From an uncultured Candidatus Bathyarchaeia archaeon (lineage in GTDB: Archaea; Thermoproteota; Bathyarchaeia; Bathyarchaeales; Bathycorpusculaceae): DNA of 64,000 nt. The stretch covers positions 11,081 to 75,080 of the forward strand of contig CAZJBY010000005.1 in the NCBI GenBank assembly GCA_964544495.1, in the 5' to 3' direction. The notes under the pieces are model-generated. The model worked only from the letters and a program-made list of their open reading frames with translations, was not told where the DNA came from and did no database searches. Both the position numbers and the translations under genes were made by a program. Shown here piece by piece: positions 1,221-61,381 of this stretch (position 1 is its first letter; each line of letters begins with the position of its first letter).

Positions 1221-3683
1221 ATGCAGCCTCTGCCAAAGAAATATAATTTCAGCGAGATCGAGCGGAAGTGGCAGCAGAAATGGGAAGAGATGGGCATCTA
1301 CCGTTTCGACTGGAGCGACACCCAACGCACGCCGTTCACCATTGACACGCCGCCGCCGTATCCTTCTGGCGAGTTTCACATGGGCAACATCCTGAACTGG
1401 ACATACTTCGACATCGTTGCGCGGTATAAGTGCATGCGCGGTTTCAACGTGCTTTTCCCACAGGGCTGGGACTGCCACGGCTTAAGCATCGAAATTCAGG
1501 TGGAAAAAGAGCACAAGATCCGAAAGCGTGATGTGCCGCCTGACCAATTCCGCGGTTGGTGCGAGCAACTCATCGAAAGGTACATCGCCATAATGAAAGA
1601 CTCCATCCTGAAACTGGGCTGCAGCATTGACTGGACAACAGAGTACCGCACCATGGACCCTGACTACTGGCGCAGGACGCAGCTCAGCTTCATTCTCTTG
1701 CACAAGAAAGGCTTCATGTATCAGGGAACGCATCCCGTGAATTGGTGTCCACGTTGCGAAACCGCTATTGCCGATGCTGAGGTGGATTACGAAAAGCGGA
1801 AAGGCACGCTCCATTACATTCGGTTTCCGCTGGAAGGCACTGACGAGTATTTGCTTATTGCTACTTCGCGTCCCGAGTTTATTCCTGCGTGCGTGGCGGT
1901 TGAAGTAAGTCCCGAGGATGAACGGTGCAAGAGGTACATCGGCAAAAAAATAATCGTGCCCATAGCCAACCGTACAGTGACGATTATTGGTGATGAAGCG
2001 GTTGACCCCGAGTTCGGCACCGGTGTGGTTCAAATCTGCACGTACGGCGACAAGGAAGACGTGAAGACGGTTCTCAAGCACAAGCTTCCTATTATCAGGC
2101 TTTTAACTGACAACGGCAGGATTAACGCGAACGGAGGCAAATACGCTGGCTTAACCATAAACCAAGCCCGAAAAGCCATTGTGGAAGACCTTGAAGCTGC
2201 TGGTTTGTTGGAGAAGTCTGAGCCGCTCGCGCAGGAAGTCGGCGTTTGCGACCGCTGTAAAACGCACGTTGAGATTCTTGAGCATAAGCAGTGGTTCATG
2301 AAGACACGAGCGTTAACCGACAAAGTTGTAGAAACCGCCAACGAAGTCGTGTGGTATCCTGATTACATGAGAGCACGCCTCATCGACTGGGCAAGGTCTC
2401 TGGATTGGGACTGGGTGATCAGCCGCCAACGCGTGTTCGCCACACCCATACCTGTGTGGTACTGCACGAACTGCGGCGAACTAATCCTCGCCGAGGAAGA
2501 CTGGGTTCCGATAGACCCGAAGCTGCAAAACCCGCGCTTAGACAAGTGCCCGAAATGCGGCGGAACCGAGTTCACTCCCGAACGCGACGTTTTCGACACG
2601 TGGATGGACAGTTCAATCACATGTGCTGTGCATGCTGGATGGCCCGACCGTCCAGATTGGAAACGGTTTTTCCCCGCTGATGTGCATCCGTCAGGCATTG
2701 ATATTATTCGAACTTGGGCTTACTACTTGATGGTTAGACACTTGGCGCTGTTCGGCGAGACGCCTTACAAGAGCTGCCTCATAAACGGCATGGTCCTCGG
2801 CTCAGACGGCAGAAAAATGAGCAAGTCGCTCAAGAACTATGTGGCGGCGCCTGAAGTTTTAGGCAAGTACGGCTCAGACGCCACGCGCCAGTGGGCAGCA
2901 GGCGGCGGAGCTACAGGCTCAGACATTCCCTTCCGATGGCCAGACGTGGAGTATGGCAGGCGCTTCCTTGTGAAGCTGTGGAACGTGTCGAAATTTGCGA
3001 GTAAACTTTTGGAAGGCTACTCGCCTAGCGAAACGGGCGAGTTTGAGCTTCAACTCTTGGACAAGTGGATTTTAAGCAAGGCGGAAAAGCTGACGCAGAA
3101 AGTTACTGATGCCATGGAGAAGTGCCAATTCAACGTCGCTGTGGAGGAGATTCGCAATTTCACATGGCACCTGTTCTGTGACTATTACATAGAAGCCGTA
3201 AAGGACAAGCTGTACAATCCTGACGCCTATGGCTCAGCGAAGAAGCTTGCGGCTCAGCATACGCTTTACGAGGTCCTTCACCGTGTTCTGCAGTTGCTGG
3301 CGCCCATGACTCCGCATTTGACCGAGGAAATTTACCAAGCTATGTACGCAGAAGACAAGGGATTCAAGAGCCTGCAGATTTCGCCCTGGCCTGAGCATAA
3401 CCCTGAGCGTGAAGATGAGGCTGTGGAAAAGAACGGAGACCTCGTAATGGCAATCATGAGCGGAGTTCGACAATACAAAGCAGAGAACAAGTTGCCGCTT
3501 AACGCACCCGTCAAAACCTTAGATATCTACTCTGGAAACGCAGAAACCGCGAACGCAATAAACTCTGCAAAAGAAGACCTTGCTGGAACGCTCAAAATCG
3601 CTAACGTAAGAGTCCATCCAGAAAAGCGAAATGACGGCAAGCAAATCAGCCCGTACGACGTGTCCTTCCAAATTGAATACTAA
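1221..3683 (+). CDS. valS: valine--tRNA ligase (class I aaRS)
   Basis: 820 aa. HIGH-type motif PPPYPSGEFHMGN, FPQGWDCHGL, editing-domain TSRPEF...FGTGVVQICTYGDKEDV, and KMSKS. Confidence 0.8.
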   Translation: MQPLPKKYNFSEIERKWQQKWEEMGIYRFDWSDTQRTPFTIDTPPPYPSGEFHMGNILNWTYFDIVARYKCMRGFNVLFPQGWDCHGLSIEIQVEKEHKIRKRDVPPDQFRGWCEQLIERYIAIMKDSILKLGCSIDWTTEYRTMDPDYWRRTQLSFILLHKKGFMYQGTHPVNWCPRCETAIADAEVDYEKRKGTLHYIRFPLEGTDEYLLIATSRPEFIPACVAVEVSPEDERCKRYIGKKIIVPIANRTVTIIGDEAVDPEFGTGVVQICTYGDKEDVKTVLKHKLPIIRLLTDNGRINANGGKYAGLTINQARKAIVEDLEAAGLLEKSEPLAQEVGVCDRCKTHVEILEHKQWFMKTRALTDKVVETANEVVWYPDYMRARLIDWARSLDWDWVISRQRVFATPIPVWYCTNCGELILAEEDWVPIDPKLQNPRLDKCPKCGGTEFTPERDVFDTWMDSSITCAVHAGWPDRPDWKRFFPADVHPSGIDIIRTWAYYLMVRHLALFGETPYKSCLINGMVLGSDGRKMSKSLKNYVAAPEVLGKYGSDATRQWAAGGGATGSDIPFRWPDVEYGRRFLVKLWNVSKFASKLLEGYSPSETGEFELQLLDKWILSKAEKLTQKVTDAMEKCQFNVAVEEIRNFTWHLFCDYYIEAVKDKLYNPDAYGSAKKLAAQHTLYEVLHRVLQLLAPMTPHLTEEIYQAMYAEDKGFKSLQISPWPEHNPEREDEAVEKNGDLVMAIMSGVRQYKAENKLPLNAPVKTLDIYSGNAETANAINSAKEDLAGTLKIANVRVHPEKRNDGKQISPYDVSFQIEY

Positions 3684-3700: not shown

Positions 3701-4453
3701 ATGAGAGAAAATCCTGAGTCAAAAAAAGTTGGCATAATAGGCTGCGGCGCCATCGGCACACTAATAGCGGAAGCAGCAGAACGAAAACTGGTCATGTGCG
3801 ACGAGGTGATTCTCTACGATTACGCGGCGGAAAAGACGGAAAAGCTCAGAAGCTCCCTGCGTTTTCCTGTGACTGTCGTGGCAAGTTTGGATGAGATGCT
3901 CAGGCTCAAGCCCAAGGTTATAGTGGAAGCAGCGTCACAGCAAGCTGCCCGAGAATATGTGGAGCGCATAGCCTCCGCGGGCATCGATTTGATTGTGATG
4001 AGCACAGGCGCACTTCTGGACTTGAACGTGCAGAGCAGCAAGGTTCACGTGCCATCTGGGGCTATTGGCGGATTGGACGCGCTTTCAAGTGCGGCTTTAG
4101 CTGGAATAGACGAGGTTGTATTGACTTCGCGGAAAAATCCACGCGCGTTCGAACTGAATAACAAGGAACCAAAAGTCGTGTACGAGGGCAGTGCTGAAGA
4201 GGCGGCGCGGCTTTATCCGCGGGAAATGAACGTTGCCGCCACTCTGGCTTTAACCGTTAAACCCGCAAAAGTGAAGGTGCAAGTGGTTTCCGACCCAGCG
4301 GTGCAACGCAACACACACGAGTTCACGGTGAAATGGCGGTTTGGCGAGATGTTCCTGCGGTTTGCGAATGACCCGCATCCCGAGAATCCGCGAACCAGCG
4401 CGTTGGCTGCTTGGTCGGCGATCAGGCTGCTTCAAAAGCTTTTGGAAACGTGA
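3701..4453 (+). CDS. nadX: L-aspartate dehydrogenase
   Basis: 250 aa. Rossmann N-terminus VGIIGCGAIG and PSGAIGGLDAL motif typical of NadX. Confidence 0.75.
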   Translation: MRENPESKKVGIIGCGAIGTLIAEAAERKLVMCDEVILYDYAAEKTEKLRSSLRFPVTVVASLDEMLRLKPKVIVEAASQQAAREYVERIASAGIDLIVMSTGALLDLNVQSSKVHVPSGAIGGLDALSSAALAGIDEVVLTSRKNPRAFELNNKEPKVVYEGSAEEAARLYPREMNVAATLALTVKPAKVKVQVVSDPAVQRNTHEFTVKWRFGEMFLRFANDPHPENPRTSALAAWSAIRLLQKLLET

Positions 4454-4479
4454 AGTTCATTTACGCTAAGAAAAAGCGG

Positions 4480-4875
4480 CTATTTCCACTCCCAGATTTT
4501 TCCCGTCCAGTTATCTTGCATGTCTGTCTCGTACTCGTGCATGCCCACGACTTTGTTTAGCCTAGCCAGTTTTTGTGATTGGGTTGTGTGAATGGACGCT
4601 GCCCTGGTGGCTCCGCCGTTTCCCGAAGGAAAACCCACTGCAATTCCTTTCGACACTATTGTCTCGCCCTCCATCGTTGTGAAAACGCTGTTCACTTCTC
4701 CCATGAAAATCCCGTTTGCCATAGTTCCAACAGAAGTGGAAACCAAAAAAGCATTTACGCCCAGAATCTTTCCTGTTCCCTGAGCCGTTGTCTCGATTTT
4801 TCCGTCAGGAAGCACTCTCCACCCCGTGTTCTTGCCCTTAAACTCACCAATAAGCTCTCCAAGCATCATGTTCAC
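4480..4875 (-). CDS. hypothetical protein
   Basis: 131-aa ORF with coding-like composition and no recognised motif. Confidence 0.45.
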   Translation of the reverse strand: MNMMLGELIGEFKGKNTGWRVLPDGKIETTAQGTGKILGVNAFLVSTSVGTMANGIFMGEVNSVFTTMEGETIVSKGIAVGFPSGNGGATRAASIHTTQSQKLARLNKVVGMHEYETDMQDNWTGKIWEWK

Positions 4876-5000
4876 CTCAGGAGATACAACACTTGATTTT
4901 TCTTATTAGCGTTTGTGACTGGGCAACGTCAATCACAGCGGAGCATAGCACTTGCCACATAGTCAGCTATTTCAGAAAGCAGTGAGTTGTTAGTTGACTC

Positions 5001-5032
5001 TTTATATAAGGGGGGTATAGACTGTTCCGAGC
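5001..5032 (-). repeat. G6-TATAGAC intergenic cassette, copy 1 (subtype B)
   Basis: The + strand reads TTTATATAAGGGGGGTATAGACTGTTCCGAGC. Read on the - strand it starts 15 nt after the stop of the radical SAM gene. Confidence 0.8.
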
Positions 5033-5046
5033 ATACCAGTTCAGCG

Positions 5047-6351
5047 TTAAGCGCCGTTAAAGAACTCCCAAGAAATGTTGAAACGCCATGGATCGCCCTT
5101 CTCAGTCAACTGTATTTTCCCGTTTCTCACTTCAATGAGCCCTTTACTTTTCATCCTGCTTATCTCATCAGGAAAAACTTCCTCGGGAAACCTGCCGAAA
5201 TCAGCTCTGAATTTCTCGCGGTCAACAGGAACACGGATGTAAATAAGCATCATAGCTTTTCTCATTTCGTCTTCCTCAGAAGTCTTGTGCAACCGCGCTA
5301 CAGGAAACTCGCCTTCCCTAACCTTCGAAATATAGCTTTGGATATCATCGATGTCCGAATAGAGAAAACGACCAATATGCCCCATGAAAAAACCAGCACC
5401 CGTACCCACCACTTCAGAAGAAGGCTTCGTGAAATCCTCTTTAACCCTTGAGAACCTGTTATGACAAGCAGGCTTGTACCCGTTTTCCTCAAAAACTCGG
5501 TAAGCTTCAAGATACATATCCAGCTCAACAGAGTCATCCCCCACAGGCGGCAATTCACCCGCCGCAATTTTTTTCGCAAGAGGAGTTTCAGGATACAAAT
5601 CCAAAGGATAACAATCCACACTTTCAACCTCAAGCTCCAACGCCTGTCTCAAATCCTCCTTCCACTGCTCCAGCGTCTGACCAGGAAGATTATAAAGCAG
5701 GTCAATGCTAACCCGCAAACCCCGCTTCCTCACCAGCCGCAACTTATCTTTCACATCTCGGCTACCATCACGAATCATCAAAGTATTACGCAAAGAATCA
5801 TCAAAAGTCTGAATCCCAATGTCCAACTGATCAACACCATTCGAGCAAAGCACACCGATCTTGTCTTCAGACAAACTGTTGGTGCACGCCGTGAACTTCG
5901 TCAAGTGATCCGCACTCAAATTGAAAGTTTCCCGACAAAAACCCAAAACATCCGCAATCTGCTCGGCGGAAATAACCGAAGGACTTCCACCACCCACGTA
6001 CAACTCGTTGAAAACACTCGATTTAACATAGTTATTCTCCGCATAAAGACTCAACGCCTTCTTAAGCGCAGCAACATACGAAGCCACGTTCTGCTTGTCA
6101 CAACTCACCGCAAAATAGCAAAAAGCACACTTACACTCACAAAAAGGAAGCCACGGCTGCAACTCCCTATTCTGACCACCCGAACCTTCCTTTCCTAGAA
6201 AATCAACAAACTCAGACAAAACCTGAGAAGTTGGAACCGACCTATCCCTGTAAGTCATTGGAGGCCAATGTTCAACATGATCATACGGCCATCCATTGTT
6301 AATTTTATGGTTCACTTGGAAACCTCTTCGAATAGCATGCGCCCTTGCCAC
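5047..6351 (-). CDS. radical SAM protein, HemN/HemW-like (coproporphyrinogen III oxidase family)
   Basis: 434 aa. CECKCAFC contains CxxxCxxC. GGGSPS motif and HemN-like C-terminal domain. Confidence 0.7.
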   Translation of the reverse strand: MARAHAIRRGFQVNHKINNGWPYDHVEHWPPMTYRDRSVPTSQVLSEFVDFLGKEGSGGQNRELQPWLPFCECKCAFCYFAVSCDKQNVASYVAALKKALSLYAENNYVKSSVFNELYVGGGSPSVISAEQIADVLGFCRETFNLSADHLTKFTACTNSLSEDKIGVLCSNGVDQLDIGIQTFDDSLRNTLMIRDGSRDVKDKLRLVRKRGLRVSIDLLYNLPGQTLEQWKEDLRQALELEVESVDCYPLDLYPETPLAKKIAAGELPPVGDDSVELDMYLEAYRVFEENGYKPACHNRFSRVKEDFTKPSSEVVGTGAGFFMGHIGRFLYSDIDDIQSYISKVREGEFPVARLHKTSEEDEMRKAMMLIYIRVPVDREKFRADFGRFPEEVFPDEISRMKSKGLIEVRNGKIQLTEKGDPWRFNISWEFFNGA

Positions 6352-7364: not shown

Positions 7365-7442
7365 TGGCGGGCCCGACGGGAATTGAACCCGCGACCCCCG
7401 GATTAAAAGTCCGGTGCTCTAGCCTTGCTGAGCTACGGGCCC
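7365..7442 (-). tRNA. tRNA-Lys (anticodon UUU), CCA encoded
   Basis: The reverse complement GGGCCCGTAGCTCAGCAAGGCTAGAGCACCGGACTTTTAATCCGGGGGTCGCGGGTTCAATTCCCGTCGGGCCCGCCA folds into a full cloverleaf with a 7-bp acceptor stem and anticodon loop CTTTTAA. Confidence 0.93.
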
Positions 7443-7588
7443 TCCTGCTGGATTGGTTGCTCATAGGAGAAACAAGAAAGAGGTTTTTTAGCGTTTCGAT
7501 TCTGCACTCGAGGAAACGGGTACCGCGTGCCTGTTTTGTTAGCACCGAAACTAAAAGTTGTCGCGTTTCTACGGTTTAGTCTTTGTGT

Positions 7589-7626
7589 GGGGGGGTATAG
7601 GTAAAAATTTGCACAACAGATTACGG
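7589..7626 (-). repeat. G6-TATAGAC cassette, degenerate copy (subtype A, no clear TATA)
   Basis: GGGGGGGTATAGGTAAAAATTTGCACAACAGATTACGG. On the - strand it starts 17 nt after the PadR stop and lies 147 nt upstream of tRNA-Lys. Confidence 0.6.
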
Positions 7627-10510: not shown

Positions 10511-10556
10511 CGCTTAGAACTGTTGCGATTTTTTGTCTATACCCCCCTTATTTAAA
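10511..10556 (+). repeat. G6-TATAGAC cassette, copy 2 (subtype A with T6 run)
   Basis: CGCTTAGAACTGTTGCGATTTTTTGTCTATACCCCCCTTATTTAAA, starting 16 nt after the GT2 stop. Confidence 0.8.
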
Positions 10557-10650
10557 GGCGGAAGCACAGGTTGAATTTCTGCGCCGATACGGACCTATCC
10601 CTTATAGGTTTCTGCAACGAATCTCTATTAGACGGCAAATATGTTGGTCT
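10557..10650 (+). ncRNA. conserved non-coding module, short copy (candidate sRNA or leader)
   Basis: GATACGGACCTATCCCTTATAGGTTTCTGCA...CTATTAGACGGCAAATATGTTGGT aligns with the modules at 34.2 kb, 60.6 kb and 57.9 kb. It lies between convergent genes. Confidence 0.3.
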
Positions 10651-10688: not shown

Positions 10689-11036
10689 TTATGTTGGTGT
10701 TTTGGCGCAGTTGCCTGTTTCTTTGGAGTTTTCGACTGCGCGCTTCAGGTTTCTGCGGAACTGCTTCAGGTCAACTGAGCCGTTGATGATTTTGAGGAGT
10801 TTAAGCAGAACCAGTGTTTTTTCGTTTTCGTAATTCAGGCTGATGATTCGGTTGTGGCCAGCGTGTTGCTGCGTGACGACGCCTTCCTGTTCCAGAACGT
10901 GCAGGTTGCGGTTGACTTCGTTGTAGTTGCTGTTGGCGGCGCGCACCAGCTTCATCATGGTGACGTGCTTTTTCTCCGATAGTGCTGTCAGGATTTTTCG
11001 GCGGCACGCTGACGCCAGGATTTTGCTTTGCTTCAT
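10689..11036 (-). CDS. winged-helix (ArsR-like) transcriptional regulator
   Basis: 115 aa. RRKILTAL...MKLVRAANSNYNEVNRNLHVLEQEGVV matches the HTH plus wing pattern. Confidence 0.65.
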   Translation of the reverse strand: MKQSKILASACRRKILTALSEKKHVTMMKLVRAANSNYNEVNRNLHVLEQEGVVTQQHAGHNRIISLNYENEKTLVLLKLLKIINGSVDLKQFRRNLKRAVENSKETGNCAKTPT

Positions 11037-12245: not shown

Positions 12246-12286
12246 TGTCAAGGTTTCTTGACCTGGCTTAGTCAACATTTCTTGAC
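12246..12286 (-). promoter_or_regulatory. dual-palindrome operator, copy 1
   Basis: TGTCAAGGTTTCTTGACCTGGCTTAGTCAACATTTCTTGAC, 64 nt upstream of ATG 12181. Confidence 0.7.
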
Positions 12287-34148: not shown

Positions 34149-34189
34149 TGTCAAGGTTTCTTGACCCAGCTTAGTCAACATTTCTTGAC
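34149..34189 (-). promoter_or_regulatory. dual-palindrome operator, copy 2
   Basis: TGTCAAGGTTTCTTGACCCAGCTTAGTCAACATTTCTTGAC, 67 nt upstream of ATG 34081. CTATAACACACAG lies between the two. Confidence 0.7.
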
Positions 34190-34195
34190 TAAACC

Positions 34196-34333
34196 AAAAA
34201 CCATCATATCTGCCGTCTACTAAGAGCCTATTAGCCAATTAATGCAGAAACTATAGAGGGGTAGGTCCCTATTGGCGTGGAAACAGCCCAATACATGCAA
34301 AAAACAGTGCTTCGCAGAAACCATGCAGTTTAG
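34196..34333 (-). ncRNA. conserved non-coding module (candidate sRNA or leader), full copy
   Basis: Bracketed by a TATA box (34334-34342) and a T5 run (34196-34200, - strand). About 75% identical by eye to 60619-60744. Confidence 0.35.
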
Positions 34334-34378
34334 TTTATATAAGGGGGGTATAGACAAAAAAACGCAACAGTTCTAGCG
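34334..34378 (-). repeat. G6-TATAGAC cassette, copy 4 (subtype A with T7 run)
   Basis: The + strand reads TTTATATAAGGGGGGTATAGACAAAAAAACGCAACAGTTCTAGCG, in the divergent region between the surface operon and hsp20-rpl15-secY. Confidence 0.8.
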
Positions 34379-34466
34379 CAATCAAACCAACAGAAAAAAT
34401 CTTGGCGGCTTTGCGATACATTTTAAAGTTACGTTGGAAATGCCATTGTATCTAGGAGACGCAAAG

Positions 34467-34904
34467 ATGAGTGCGAAATGGAGGAGATGCAAAAAGCGCC
34501 TGAAGTGGCTAGACACGGCTAGTCCAGAAAGGATCGACGCCAACAACCGCTGCAGGATACTCCGCATCGAAACCACGCGAACCGCAAGGTCAGCTCCTCC
34601 ATACTACAGATCATCAAAAAACTACGCGAAACGAAAATGGAAAGCGCCAAAACCACTCATCGACATTTTCCAAGAAAAAAACTGGATAACCATCGTCGCC
34701 GAAATCGCAGGCTTTAATAGGGAAACCCTAAAGATAAATGTGAAAGACCAGAAACTAACACTATCTGCAAAAGCAAAAGACCGCAGATACTACAAAAGCT
34801 TAAATCTACCCAAAGTAGTGGTTCCAAACGCCGTCCACACCACCTACAAAAACGGCGTCCTCGAAATCAAACTTAAAAAAGCACCAAAAGAAAAAGGAAT
34901 CTAA
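34467..34904 (+). CDS. Hsp20/alpha-crystallin-domain protein with a basic N-terminal region
   Basis: DIFQEKNWITIVAEIAGFNRETLKINVKDQKLTLSAKA...TYKNGVLEIKLKK. The ORF is open from 34434. ATG 34467 follows GGAGA. The stop lies 6 nt before rpl15. Confidence 0.7.
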   Translation: MSAKWRRCKKRLKWLDTASPERIDANNRCRILRIETTRTARSAPPYYRSSKNYAKRKWKAPKPLIDIFQEKNWITIVAEIAGFNRETLKINVKDQKLTLSAKAKDRRYYKSLNLPKVVVPNAVHTTYKNGVLEIKLKKAPKEKGI

Positions 34905-36773: not shown

Positions 36774-36806
36774 GCTCGGAACAGTCTATACCCCCCTTAT
36801 TTATAG
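36774..36806 (+). repeat. G6-TATAGAC cassette, copy 5 (subtype B)
   Basis: GCTCGGAACAGTCTATACCCCCCTTATTTATAG starts 16 nt after the secY stop. A partial inverted copy GGGGTATAGAA lies at 36824-36834. Confidence 0.8.
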
Positions 36807-36896
36807 AGTTAACTTGGTTTTGCGGGGTATAGAATAGTTGCCTGGAAATATTAGCAAAGCTTTTGAGCCTAACTGCCTGTACTAGCACGGTTACTA

Positions 36897-37247
36897 ATGA
36901 AATACTATCATGTATTCATTCAAAGCTTGGAAAAACAGGGTCTCTGGAGGCAAGGCATCAGTTTTGACCATTCCAAAGAAAACATGATGGCAAGTATTAT
37001 CTCACCTTTTAATGAACAGAAACCCTTCCGTTTCGGTGAAAGACTGGTGGATTTAAAGAAAATTGACTGCGTCATCGTCTTTGAATCTGACAAGCCAATC
37101 AGTGAGATAGTTCTCCCCAATGGAGAGGACCCTCATGAGGCAGATATGGCTTTTCTTATTCACAGTTTCTGTGACGGCACGGTTAGGGGTATCCGTGACT
37201 GCACATCTGAATTCGTTTTGCCAACCACGCATGCTGGAAAATCATAG
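36897..37247 (+). CDS. hypothetical protein
   Basis: 116-aa ORF with no recognised motif. Confidence 0.4.
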   Translation: MKYYHVFIQSLEKQGLWRQGISFDHSKENMMASIISPFNEQKPFRFGERLVDLKKIDCVIVFESDKPISEIVLPNGEDPHEADMAFLIHSFCDGTVRGIRDCTSEFVLPTTHAGKS

Positions 37248-45069: not shown

Positions 45070-45110
45070 GTCAAGAAACCTTGACTAAGCCAGGTCAAGA
45101 AACCTTGACA
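45070..45110 (+). promoter_or_regulatory. dual-palindrome operator, copy 3
   Basis: GTCAAGAAACCTTGACTAAGCCAGGTCAAGAAACCTTGACA, the reverse complement of the other copies, 65 nt upstream of ATG 45176. Confidence 0.7.
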
Positions 45111-57682: not shown

Positions 57683-57935
57683 GTTTCCAATCCTCTTTTG
57701 ACACGTGTATTGAATGTTTCTCTTTTTCTGTGCATTTATTACAAACAAGTATTTAAAACTATCCGTTTGGAGATCAAAACCATTCAAAACTAAACAACAG
57801 CATAAGAAACAAACCGAAAAGAAACAATTCCTTCAATTTTCCTCCCCCAAACAACATTTTACTGAAAAAACGTTCAAAACAGAACCGCCAAGCTTACAAT
57901 AGACACGCACTACACGCGAGAATTAACCAACCATA

Positions 57936-58002
57936 TTTGCCGTCAATTAGGCTCCTAATAGAAATACGATGCAGAAGCCCATAGGGAATCTACCCAATGG
58001 CG
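57936..58002 (-). repeat. partial copy of the conserved non-coding module, between the surface operon and amt
   Basis: TTTGCCGTCAATTAGGCTCCTAATAG...ATGCAGAAGCCCATAGGGAATCTACCCAATGGCG aligns with 34210-34277 and 60634-60699. Confidence 0.5.
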
Positions 58003-60540: not shown

Positions 60541-60581
60541 TGTCAAGGTTTCTTGACCTGGCTTAGTCAAGGTTTCTTGAC
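60541..60581 (-). promoter_or_regulatory. dual-palindrome operator, copy 4
   Basis: TGTCAAGGTTTCTTGACCTGGCTTAGTCAAGGTTTCTTGAC. CCTATAACACACAG lies between it and the gene. Confidence 0.7.
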
Positions 60582-60618: not shown

Positions 60619-60744
60619 AAAAAACCATCCTGTTTGCCGCATACACTTCCTAATAGCAGTTTATTGCAGAAAATAGAGGGGAGAGGTCCCGTATTGGCTG
60701 TTTCCGCAACCAATAGCAGTGCTTCGCCGAAACCATGCAGTTCA
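60619..60744 (-). ncRNA. conserved non-coding module (candidate sRNA or leader), full copy
   Basis: Bracketed by the TATA-like GTATATATA (60745-60753) and a T6 run (60619-60624, - strand). Homologous to 34196-34333. Confidence 0.35.
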
Positions 60745-60777
60745 GTATATATACGGGGGGTATAGACTGCACCGAGC
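60745..60777 (-). repeat. G6-TATAGAC cassette, copy 6 (subtype B)
   Basis: The + strand reads GTATATATACGGGGGGTATAGACTGCACCGAGC. Confidence 0.75.
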
Positions 60778-60835
60778 AACAGAGAACACGAATACTTTTC
60801 TAAAACCTCCACCCTACTAGTTTCAGGCGAAAACT

Positions 60836-61381
60836 GTGACGCTGGATCACTACACTTACCCGAAAGAAATTGTGATAGACGAAGCTGGATGGAGCGAACT
60901 GCTGCTAGGCGTAGTAATCGGCGCCATCAAACCCCCAGACCCACGATACATGGAACGCAGAATCCCCATATCCTCCTTTCAACCGCCAAACTTCACCAAA
61001 AAAAGATACCTCGACGACGCCGTAAAAATCGCCGAAGAAATCATCGAAGTCATGCAGCCCGACGACGAAACCCACTTCAAAATCTCCTCCGCATACGTCC
61101 TCTCCAGCGTACGCAGATACCTCCAAAACCGAGGATTCAAAGTCGAAAAAGTCGACGCCACAGGCGAACTCCAACAGATGGCGGAAAGAGGCTACACAAG
61201 ATGGTGCACCGAAGTAGGCGTGCCAGCCGAGCTGCTTGAAAACAAAAGACGCTTCTGGGTACTGCTTAATTGGGTCGCTGAAAGACCCCACCTGAGGGAA
61301 AGCCTAGTGAAAACTGGATGGGCAAGCTGGCAGCGAAAATGGCGAGAAGAAATCTACAAACCTCAAAACCTGCAAGGCTAA
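60836..61381 (+). CDS. hypothetical protein
   Basis: 181-aa ORF with coding-like composition, a GTG start and no recognised motif. Confidence 0.5.
   Translation: MTLDHYTYPKEIVIDEAGWSELLLGVVIGAIKPPDPRYMERRIPISSFQPPNFTKKRYLDDAVKIAEEIIEVMQPDDETHFKISSAYVLSSVRRYLQNRGFKVEKVDATGELQQMAERGYTRWCTEVGVPAELLENKRRFWVLLNWVAERPHLRESLVKTGWASWQRKWREEIYKPQNLQG

Follow-up and report, generated by a model that had tools for sequence, protein, structure and literature searches.

REP/BIME elements, pneumococcal BOX elements, and neisserial Correia repeats are palindromic hairpins or carry terminal inverted repeats, and in part have dedicated transposases. The JUMPStart/ops leader elements of the RfaH system are located upstream of bacterial surface-polysaccharide and pilus operons, and a protein recognises the ops element on the non-template DNA strand or the elongation complex, not as an RNA structure. 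Archaeal trans-acting small RNAs (sRNAs) and bacterial protein-sponge RNAs of the CsrB/RsmZ type have their own promoters, paralogous copies, and short repeated motifs. In the att, integron attC, and lox/FRT core sites, arms are arranged around a fixed spacer of 6-8 base pairs (bp), and such sites mark the junctions of cassettes and mobile elements. Within the single viral genome of halovirus HF2, intergenic repeats that carry promoters were described and tested with reporters (PMC8707807). The subject of the present analysis is a short non-coding module that occurs four times in a 64-kb stretch of archaeal DNA (contig CAZJBY010000005.1; the whole stretch is referred to as the window), in copies designated c10, c34, c57, and c60.

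The four window segments are real members of one non-coding family that is under constraint, and the module is conserved as sequence, not as RNA structure. The best explanation, which is put forward tentatively and is rated somewhat short of an even chance, is that the module might act as a portable, transcribed yet unstructured promoter-proximal cassette that is recognised by its sequence. A literature search found no description of the module, and the family is apparently undescribed so far; it was classified as a dispersed, modular, promoter-linked intergenic repeat, itself a kind already known. The family is confined to the Bathyarchaeia, besides two related virus-like contigs. Bathyarchaeia are among the most abundant archaea of anoxic sediments; to our knowledge, no genetic system exists for them, and their gene regulation and genome reorganisation are almost unexplored. 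The module could provide a handle on a lineage-specific promoter/leader code and the factor that reads it, a handle on the shuffling of surface-protein gene clusters, and a sequence marker that assigns viruses and mobile elements to Bathyarchaeial hosts.

Membership and lineage range of the family

The TTCTGCA-N8-CTAWTAG core of the module was found exactly four times in the window, compared with 0.03 occurrences expected from shuffles, and a profile hidden Markov model (HMM) built from 159 family members (nhmmer) matched the window only at c10, c34, c57, and c60. All four segments that a first-pass annotation of the window had picked out were present at the places and on the strands it gave. 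Its estimate of ~75% identity between c34 and c60 held as to their relatedness, the measured value for the segments 34196-34333 and 60619-60744 being 72% over 141 columns; the remaining pairs among the four copies are 64-67% identical. The proposed length of 115-140 nucleotides (nt) had to be revised, as the conserved unit is a core of ~60-70 nt. Likewise, c57, which had been taken for a partial copy, contains the complete conserved core; only the G6 promoter cassette and the upstream hairpin segment (see below) are missing, and are replaced by a decayed promoter of the TTTAAATAG-TTCTGAAAGAGG type.

A pattern scan of one genome per species yielded 116 loci. The core HMM matched 27 of these, all from Bathyarchaeia/Bathyarchaeota metagenome-assembled genomes (16 MAGs), and none of the other 89, which belong to bacteria, one Woesearchaeota MAG, and one Nitrosarchaeum MAG. 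A stricter pattern recovered at least 120 metagenome contigs and one viral contig. In a census that covered the 867 kb of matched loci listed plus the window (nhmmer, E<1e-3), 181 copies were counted in 149 loci, among the matches listed and with the window included. The further homologs that the first pass had proposed to look for number in the hundreds, from 16 or more Bathyarchaeia MAGs and from many metagenomes of sediments, and the per-genome copy number is estimated to be in the tens. The window itself is Bathyarchaeial, and stretches of kilobases in it match L045, L205, L009, and other loci of this collection at 74-85% identity.

Anatomy of the module

The module consists of two conserved blocks, L and R, on either side of a spacer. 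From block L to the spacer, the consensus reads GGA(TAGA/CCTA)CCCCC-TCTATAGG-TTTCTGCA, then WNGAAYYN, the order within block L being a C-run, the TATA-like TCTATAGG, and TTTCTGCA. The TATA-like TCTATAGG was found in most copies, yet has the lowest information content within block L, and in many copies this part is replaced by the C/T-rich CTCCCCCTT or CTCCTCGTT. The spacer is invariably 8 nt long and only weakly constrained in sequence. Block R follows the consensus CTAWTAGG-(NNN-CTAWTAGG/CAAATAGG)0-2-NNNC-AAATATG-MTGG, in which CTAWTAGG is followed by zero to two additional 11-nt units and by CAAATATG, and its length changes in whole 11-nt units. The boxes are spaced by 11 nt within block R and the first box lies ~23 nt from the TATA-like box, a spacing that would fit binding to a single face of the DNA helix. 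In many copies, TTTCAACATGCTATTGG-N12-CCAATAC is present as an upstream segment, and units are commonly tandem (two, occasionally three) or truncated. The features of the copies in the window are listed below.

34206-34274, minus strand: conserved core of c34 (nhmmer E=2.9e-11)
34243-34249, minus strand: TTCTGCA of c34, in block L (GGGACCTACCCCTCTATAG-TTTCTGCA)
34235-34242, minus strand: spacer of c34, TTAATTGG
34227-34234 and 34205-34212, minus strand: CTAATAGG and CAGATATG, which form block R of c34 with a degenerate 11-nt unit between them
34275-34333, minus strand: upstream segment of c34
~34304-34322, minus strand: degenerate first unit of c34, GGTTTCTGCGAAGCACTG
34288-34293 and 34270-34275, minus strand: TATTGG and CCAATA of the c34 inverted-repeat segment, a helix without covariation support
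34334-34355, minus strand: G6 promoter cassette of c34, GTCTATACCCCCC + TTATATAAA, its orientation inferred from the G6 copies at 5010 (minus strand) and 36784 (plus strand)
34196-34200, minus strand: T5 run 3′ of c34, a possible archaeal terminator or attenuator, specific to this copy
60620-60695, minus strand: conserved core of c60 (nhmmer E=3.7e-8)
60665-60671, minus strand: TTCTGCA of c60, followed by the spacer ATAAACTG (60657-60664), CTATTAGG (60649-60656), and CAAACAGG (60629-60636)
60619-60624, minus strand: T6 run of c60, overlapping the end of the core
60696-60767, minus strand: upstream part of c60, with the G6 cassette (60755-60767), TATA (60746-60754), a degenerate first unit, and TATTGG...CCAATA
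10587-10649, plus strand: core of c10, a short two-box form (nhmmer E=5.3e-15, the top match in the window)
10610-10616, plus strand: TTCTGCA of c10, followed by the spacer ACGAATCT (10617-10624), CTATTAGA (10625-10632), and CAAATATG (10636-10643)
10535-10556, plus strand: G6 promoter cassette of c10, GTCTATACCCCCC + TTATTTAAA
57933-57993, minus strand: complete core of c57, a three-box form between the last surface gene and amt (nhmmer E=5.8e-10)
57970-57976, minus strand: TTCTGCA of c57, followed by the spacer TCGTATTT (57962-57969), the palindrome CTATTAGGAGCCTAATTGA (57943-57961), and CAAATATG (57933-57940)
4956-4977, minus strand: possible fifth copy, the strongly degenerate TTCTGAAATAGCTGACTATGTG, found with a loose pattern only and missed by the HMM

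The degenerate copy at 4956-4977 is located 3′ of the G6 cassette at 5010-5022 (minus strand), within the leader of the open reading frame (ORF) at 4480-4875 (minus strand).

The loops of the TATTGG...CCAATA segments differ in state: GGAAACAG in c60 (60697-60708) is the reverse complement of CTGTTTCC in c34 (34276-34287). Both states of this 12-nt centre recur in many genomes, with examples in L049, L038, L067, and other loci, a situation that resembles flip/flop hairpin-loop inversions. Identical classes of the 8-nt spacer recur across many MAGs, without genome-specific bursts. A role of the spacer class as an "address" of the downstream partner was considered and dropped, as no association was found (chi-square p=0.16).

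Constraint at orthologous positions

Two window copies have orthologs in the collection. L205 is the ortholog of the Hsp20-L15-SecY side, where c34 is located, and is ~80% identical to the window overall. The identities of the individual segments, window compared with L205, were found to be as follows.

G6 cassette: 27 of 28 positions identical
Block L: 25 of 26 positions identical
Block R: 26 of 34 positions identical
Linker: 23 of 43 positions identical
Degenerate first unit: 6 of 29 positions identical, largely deleted in L205
Spacer: 2 of 8 positions identical
Hairpin segment of c34: 20 of 26 positions identical

The homology between c34 and L205 stops directly after ATATGAYGG, past which the window continues into the T5 run, the operators, and a surface cluster, and L205 into a conserved non-coding region that is described below as the CACCTCC region. 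L045 is the ortholog of the amt side (c57) and is ~85% identical. In this pair, block R was identical at 27 of 30 positions and block L at ~65% (counts read from alignment A4), while the upstream flanks are unrelated, with the end of the surface gene in the window and a canonical promoter in L045. Orthologs at 80-85% genome identity retain the blocks while neighbouring intergenic DNA is unalignable. Since the blocks are kept while the spacer, the linkers, and one flank change, the blocks are under purifying selection.

The spacer behaves differently. In flank-sharing pairs (at least 84% identity), it differs at 61 of 128 positions (48%), compared with 58 of 432 (13%) in the adjacent 27 nt. Random copy pairs diverge at the spacer as much as the flank-sharing pairs do (~48%), which was interpreted as simple absence of constraint. 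Directed diversification of the spacer was rejected, since the divergence equals that of random pairs, with no signal of shared ancestry.

These comparisons also bear on the most economical explanation, that one promoter region of this genome was recently duplicated without constraint. It is true that c34 and c60 share their entire layout from promoter to operator. However, the family is present in at least 16 MAGs, at least 120 metagenome contigs, and one virus-like contig, the window copies are only 64-72% identical with the same blocks in all, and orthologous copies are conserved. Recent duplication, which the first-pass annotation had named as one of the outcomes that would undo its proposal, is refuted by these homologs and by the blocks kept in orthologous copies, and has next to no probability left.

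Beside c34, the Hsp20 promoter and 5′ untranslated region (34405-34466; gene at 34434-34904, plus strand) was found to be identical to L205 at 62 of 62 positions. An imperfect inverted repeat at this promoter (34399-34420/34447-34468; TGTATC...GATACA) may be the operator of a heat-shock regulator.

Tests for RNA structure, known RNAs, and coding potential

A search of the whole window with Rfam 15 at the gathering threshold revealed only tRNA-Lys, and searches of 18 related loci revealed only tRNAs and a thiamine pyrophosphate (TPP) riboswitch located elsewhere. At E<=10, c34 and the tandem array of L048 gave noise (11-16 bits, compared with thresholds of 40-100). The Rfam comparison, which had been suggested with the original prediction, thus yielded no relevant family even at E<=10. 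Single-sequence folding of the four window copies gave z-scores of -1.8 to +1.1, no more stable than shuffles. RNAalifold returned an empty consensus and centroid on 159 cores and 0 pairs on 44 full-length units. In the two most plausible helices, 78.8% of the cells are paired, compared with 78.5 +/- 0.6% after partner shuffling; their covariation was 0.096, and 0.096 after shuffling, and the highest mutual-information pairs were exclusively adjacent columns. The covariation test, also suggested earlier, was therefore negative for a structured sRNA. Together, these results exclude a structured or known RNA for the module.

Individual candidates were rejected one by one. A CUAUAG/CUAUUAG helix around the spacer and the upstream TATTGG/CCAATA hairpin both showed no covariation, with pairing equal to the column-shuffled expectation, and an anticodon-arm-like GGUUU-CUGCAAU-GAAYC stem-loop was not maintained in 23% of the cells and showed no covariation. 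Neither C/D boxes nor ACA boxes, as expected for C/D-box or H/ACA sRNAs, were visible in the sequence. A tRNA-like or split-tRNA identity was dismissed, since no cloverleaf was detected with ARAGORN or the Rfam tRNA model; the sole tRNA of the window is the tRNA-Lys at 7365-7442. The possibility that the ATG of CAAATATG opens a small ORF or a leader peptide was also considered. This ATG is AGG or ACG in many copies, and the downstream reading frames differ among copies, with indels of 1, 2, and 11 nt; the indels and the lost ATG exclude a conserved small ORF. Finally, the likeness to an origin-recognition box (GGAAAC and a G-run on the reverse strand) was judged by eye to have the wrong spacing and a far too high copy number.

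Promoter linkage and the 3′ end

GTCTATACCCCCC and a TATA box after it make up the G6 cassette, which is located upstream of c34, c60, and c10, in agreement with the first-pass statement that the cassette TATA precedes the non-coding segments, and occurs also at 5010 (minus strand) and 36784 (plus strand). Two G6 copies lie between same-strand genes, one between the radical SAM (rSAM) gene and the ORF at 4480-4875, the other between SecY and the ORF at 36897-37247, which sets the direction of transcription as C-run, TATA, module. In the family, a co-oriented C-run/TATA promoter was found upstream of 46 of 143 copies, compared with 6 of 143 downstream and 4 of 143 on the opposite strand. The distance from TATA to TTCTGCA is most often 38-39 nt, which would place the start site near the beginning of block L; in c34, the start is predicted ~22 nt 3′ of the G6 TATA box.

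The 3′ end is less uniform. The first-pass annotation had described an end in GGTTTTT(T) just before the operator, which stands for c34 (T5) and c60 (T6), the only window copies with an oligo-T end, and does not extend to the family; c10 has no oligo-T. Nor is bracketing by TATA and oligo-T a general architecture, with T5 runs within 50 nt downstream of 29 of 150 copies, compared with A5 runs in 23 of 150. The L205 ortholog of c34 has no T5 run. Given the lack of T-run enrichment and the state of L205, the T5 and T6 runs are local features of c34 and c60.

These data can be set against the possibility that the module represents a family of trans-acting sRNAs, in which each promoter and module would form its own sRNA gene, the conserved unstructured 5′ region would serve as a long seed or protein sponge through the repeated UAGG-containing boxes, and 3′ ends would arise from oligo-T runs or processing. 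A strong co-oriented promoter upstream, the T5/T6 ends of c34 and c60, the deep sequence conservation, and the roughly half of all copies, c10 among them, that have no same-strand gene downstream are all in keeping with it, as is the use of the module by mobile elements and at an integrase-linked locus, as is common for tRNA and small-RNA genes. However, neither conserved structure nor covariation was found, terminators are not enriched, the 3′ boundary differs between orthologs, and no Rfam family matches. Tandem and truncated units and 11-nt copy-number variation are atypical of sRNA genes, and no target complementarity was identified. An sRNA family is considered unlikely, if the most probable of the alternatives, and the narrower model, in which TATA and oligo-T bracket an sRNA, is weakened by the data.

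The promoter-like appearance of block L raises a different possibility, namely that the module is an autonomous weak or regulated promoter, with block L as a BRE-like (B recognition element-like) C-run, a TATA-like box, and a CTGCA element, and block R as the start region with an operator of iterated 11-bp boxes. Block L looks like the true promoters of the G6 and TTTAAATAG kinds, several true promoters have CTGCA or CTGAA at an equal distance after their TATA, and one unit, in L108, has a true TATA box in place of the TATA-like box. Tandem units are also found upstream of genes that are putatively highly expressed, and the promoter-carrying repeats of HF2 provide a precedent (PMC8707807). This possibility is countered by the TATA-like part itself, which is the least conserved part of block L and often CTCCCCCTT or CTCCTCGTT, by the canonical TATA boxes that downstream genes have of their own past the module, and by the variable distance from block R to the operator (3 to 14 nt). 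Apart from the refuted duplication, it is the least probable of the readings weighed here, and is very doubtful.

Further G6 cassettes were noted in the window. Those at 5001-5022 (minus strand) and 36784-36805 (plus strand) precede small ORFs without a Pfam match, at 4480-4875 (minus strand, 131 amino acids [aa]) and 36897-37247 (plus strand, 116 aa), and the latter cassette is followed by an inverted partial cassette, GCGGGGTATAGAA, at 36822-36834 (minus strand). A degenerate G6 cassette without TATA is located at 7590-7602 (minus strand), 150 nt upstream of tRNA-Lys (7365-7442). Window positions 60835-61195 and 7365-7502 have homologs in L152 that are ~1.3 kb apart with modules between them, an arrangement that points to rearrangement at the cassettes.

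Downstream partners and neighbouring genes

Several types of sequence follow the module. The partner consists of operator palindromes and genes for signal-peptide, Kelch- or Ig-like surface proteins in at least 20 cases, c34 and c60 among them; the operator palindromes 3′ of the modules are located at 34150-34189 (c34) and 60542-60581 (c60). Another module unit follows in 19 cases, and the CACCTCC region, a conserved non-coding region of ~200 nt, in at least 18 cases, none of them in the window. Other partners are a C-run/TATA cassette, the promoters of tRNA, Hsp20 or amt, and unrelated sequence. In the window, amt follows c57, and the genes downstream of c10 are convergent. The absence of a same-strand gene downstream of c10, pointed out in the first pass, was confirmed, and is shared by about half of all copies; of the ORFs nearest downstream, 77 share the strand of the module and 66 are convergent. 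Genes that follow a module keep their own TATA box between the module and the start codon, and the distance from block R to the operator ranges from 3 to 14 nt.

Beside modules, only one gene family was found repeatedly, that of the surface proteins (33 ORFs in 20 loci). In a survey of the 2 kb around modules, no transposase family was recurrent, and no integrase or recombinase was recurrent beside modules.

Paired palindromes, GTCAAGAAAYYTTGAC, occur at 12247-12286 (minus strand), 34150-34189 (minus strand), 45070-45109 (plus strand), and 60542-60581 (minus strand), directly upstream of A-rich BRE/TATA elements and surface-protein genes (signal peptide, Ig-like domains). Since modules of other genomes are followed by this operator at 20 or more loci, it represents a conserved regulon signal. 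The end of surface cluster 1, adjoining c10, carries the gene for a small winged-helix protein (10689-11036, minus strand; Pfam HVO_A0114, E=4e-7), which is a candidate regulator of the operators or the module.

The CACCTCC region was found in L024, L037, L038, L048, L049, L054, L060, L073, L094, L120, L137, L162, L168, L179, L197, L215, L221, L235, and L236, with at least four copies in one MAG; an example is L049:2650-2880. It consists of a GGGC...GCCC hairpin, an invariant CACCTCC, which is identical to the anti-Shine-Dalgarno end of 16S rRNA, and CCCTTAAGAACCCTAACGAAATTCACCAATTCAC-AAATTTAC repeats. A structure test of this region ("extRNA") revealed the GGGC/GCCC hairpin only, with little covariation, and no Rfam match.

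Synteny breakpoints and mobile elements

Synteny breaks recurrently at the modules. Of 85 inter-locus pairs whose flanks are homologous, 82 have only one flank in common, and many of these one-flank pairs involve multi-copy partners. Mobile elements were also found inside modules. A ~1-kb element in L166 (279-1314), with long terminal inverted repeats (CCCCAAACCCAAAC...CTACTAACCCTCTCTCTAAAAAC) and a 12-13-bp duplication (ATAGTTTCTGCA[A]), is inserted directly after TTCTGCA of a module; its 239-aa ORF has no Pfam match. An element in L214 (~1-1140) has the same terminus and the same insertion point in the module. In L200 (~1700-1860), a ~150-bp element resembling a MITE (a miniature transposable element with inverted repeats), with inverted ends GAGGGGTGTGCG.../...CGCACACCTCTC and a GGCTCC duplication, splits block R. 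In contrast to these inserted elements, which carry terminal repeats and duplications, an inverted-repeat scan of the four window copies revealed no shared arms at the module ends, and no target-site duplications were found around the module copies themselves.

In L007, two tandem modules (2030-2142) are followed, 70 nt downstream, by a gene for a 426-aa protein (2227-3507) with a weak match to Phage_integrase (E=1e-5), a tyrosine integrase. The virus-like contig L237 has an intergenic module (4062-4121, minus strand) that is divergent from the terminase genes (terminase large subunit at 4415-5848; an OLD-like ATPase lies at 1932-3170), and its relative L194 has a module at the same position. 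These two copies could be used as a marker for host assignment, or could act as attP or as a promoter mimic.

One possibility suggested by these junctions is that the module is an att-like site, in which blocks L and R are recombinase-binding arms around the 8-bp spacer, where cassettes and mobile elements are exchanged. The fixed length of a variable spacer between conserved blocks would be expected of such a site, and the one-flank pairs (82 of 85), the one-sided differences between orthologs (the downstream partner of c34/L205 and the upstream flank of c57/L045), the ~1-kb inverted-repeat element at the same point after TTCTGCA in L166 and L214, the integrase gene of L007, and the copy on a virus-like contig all agree with it. 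Direct module pairs also enclose gene cassettes (c60...c57 in the window; two copies in L033). However, the two blocks, L (…GGTTTCTGCA) and R (CTAWTAGG…), are not mutually reverse-complementary, unlike the arms of tyrosine-recombinase core sites, and no recombinase co-occurs with the module. Many of the one-flank pairs are paralogous multi-copy downstream families and not rearranged orthologs, the breakpoints are accounted for just as well by homologous recombination among dispersed repeats, and the linkage to promoters and their orientation would be left unexplained. An att-like site is thus judged improbable, below an sRNA family in rank.

The same dispersal could reflect a selfish or near-neutral mosaic repeat of the REP/BIME, BOX or Correia type, in which the promoter-like sequence is incidental, no host function exists, and spread depends on a trans-acting enzyme or on gene conversion. 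Copies are numerous, modular, tandem, and truncated, with variation in 11-nt units, two inverted states of the hairpin loop, near-random orientation to neighbouring genes, and locations at synteny breakpoints, and they are dispensable at two of the four surface clusters of the window. What such a repeat does not explain is that the blocks are kept at orthologous positions over 15-20% divergence while adjacent intergenic DNA is lost, that spacer classes recur across MAGs without genome-specific bursts, and that copies have a strong directional association with an upstream promoter. The copies are also without terminal inverted repeats or target duplications, and no linked transposase was found within 2 kb. 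A selfish repeat ranks next after an att-like site, as quite improbable. Lower again stands the most far-reaching claim, that the module is a new archaeal recombination and integration site, bipartite with a fixed 8-bp spacer and dispersed in tens of copies per Bathyarchaeia genome, at which promoter, gene, and non-coding cassettes, surface-protein clusters above all, are exchanged and viruses and small mobile elements integrate, which is held to be doubtful. If true, the modules would function as a cassette system akin to integrons or att sites, yet lacking a core site with the classical inverted arms.

A promoter-proximal cassette as the preferred reading

The preferred reading, a portable promoter-proximal cassette recognised by sequence, would accommodate promoter linkage, block conservation, and lack of structure as follows. 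The module would be the initially transcribed, promoter-proximal part of a portable promoter and leader cassette; the conserved unit typically lies just 3′ of a special class of promoter (C-run and TATA, in the G6 or TTTAAATAG variant). A putative sequence-specific factor would read the module, as double-stranded DNA or as the nascent, unstructured 5′ RNA, with the regularly spaced CTAWTAGG/CAAATAKG boxes as its recognition platform. The cassette is joined to varied units: operator-controlled surface operons (c34, c60), amt (c57), the CACCTCC region in other genomes, and tRNA or Hsp20 promoters; in c10 nothing follows. Transcripts driven by G6 in c34 and c60 might stop at the T5/T6 runs (~110-125 nt), or might read through the operators as an upstream leader. 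Because the copies are dispersed and near-identical in their blocks, they are also places where rearrangements break and where mobile elements land. Of the options named in the first-pass annotation, a long 5′ leader and a protein-binding platform remain viable and are now the better supported.

Several observations weigh against this reading. In approximately two thirds of the copies, no canonical promoter was recognisable within 130 nt, and transcription and its start site were deduced solely from consensus promoters. The near-random orientation to flanking ORFs fits an autonomous unit or a selfish repeat equally well. Two of the four operator-controlled surface clusters (operators 12247-12286 and 45070-45109) have no module, so that those promoters can dispense with it. 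A search for a candidate binding protein yielded none, and no neighbour family co-occurs save the surface proteins. The search patterns partly force the invariance of TTCTGCA, CTAWTAG(G), and C.AATA; secondary copies recovered only by the HMM retain these motifs with one or two changes.

Comparison with known systems

The module shares with att, attC, and lox/FRT sites two conserved arms, a fixed spacer, and a location at cassette and mobile-element junctions. Unlike in those sites, the arms are not inverted repeats, no recombinase is consistently linked, and the module is promoter-linked and often tandem. With trans-acting sRNAs and CsrB/RsmZ-type RNAs, it has in common a promoter of its own, several paralogous copies, and repeated motifs in poorly structured regions, whereas a defined 3′ end, hairpin-presented motifs, a known binding protein, and an Rfam family are lacking in the module.

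REP/BIME, BOX, and Correia elements resemble the module in being dispersed, modular, variable in unit number, and sometimes promoter-bearing, and both are hot spots for rearrangement and mobile-element insertion. In the module, by contrast, neither a covarying hairpin nor terminal inverted repeats, target duplications, or a linked transposase were found, and its blocks are conserved at orthologous sites across a class-level lineage. JUMPStart/ops and the module are both short, sequence-conserved, unstructured leader elements before long cell-surface operons, a likeness drawn across domains of life, with no claim of sequence similarity. Unlike JUMPStart/ops, the module also precedes non-surface units or stands alone, and the surface operons have their own operator-controlled promoter downstream of it.

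The nearest documented analogue is provided by the intergenic repeats of HF2 (29-58 bp; PMC8707807). Unlike these, the module family is chromosomal, class-wide, and bipartite with a fixed 8-nt spacer, and the module is mostly located 3′ of a separate canonical promoter, with the TATA-like box as its least conserved part. Both are short, multi-copy, conserved intergenic repeats of archaeal systems, and both place AT-rich promoter-type motifs before differing transcription units.

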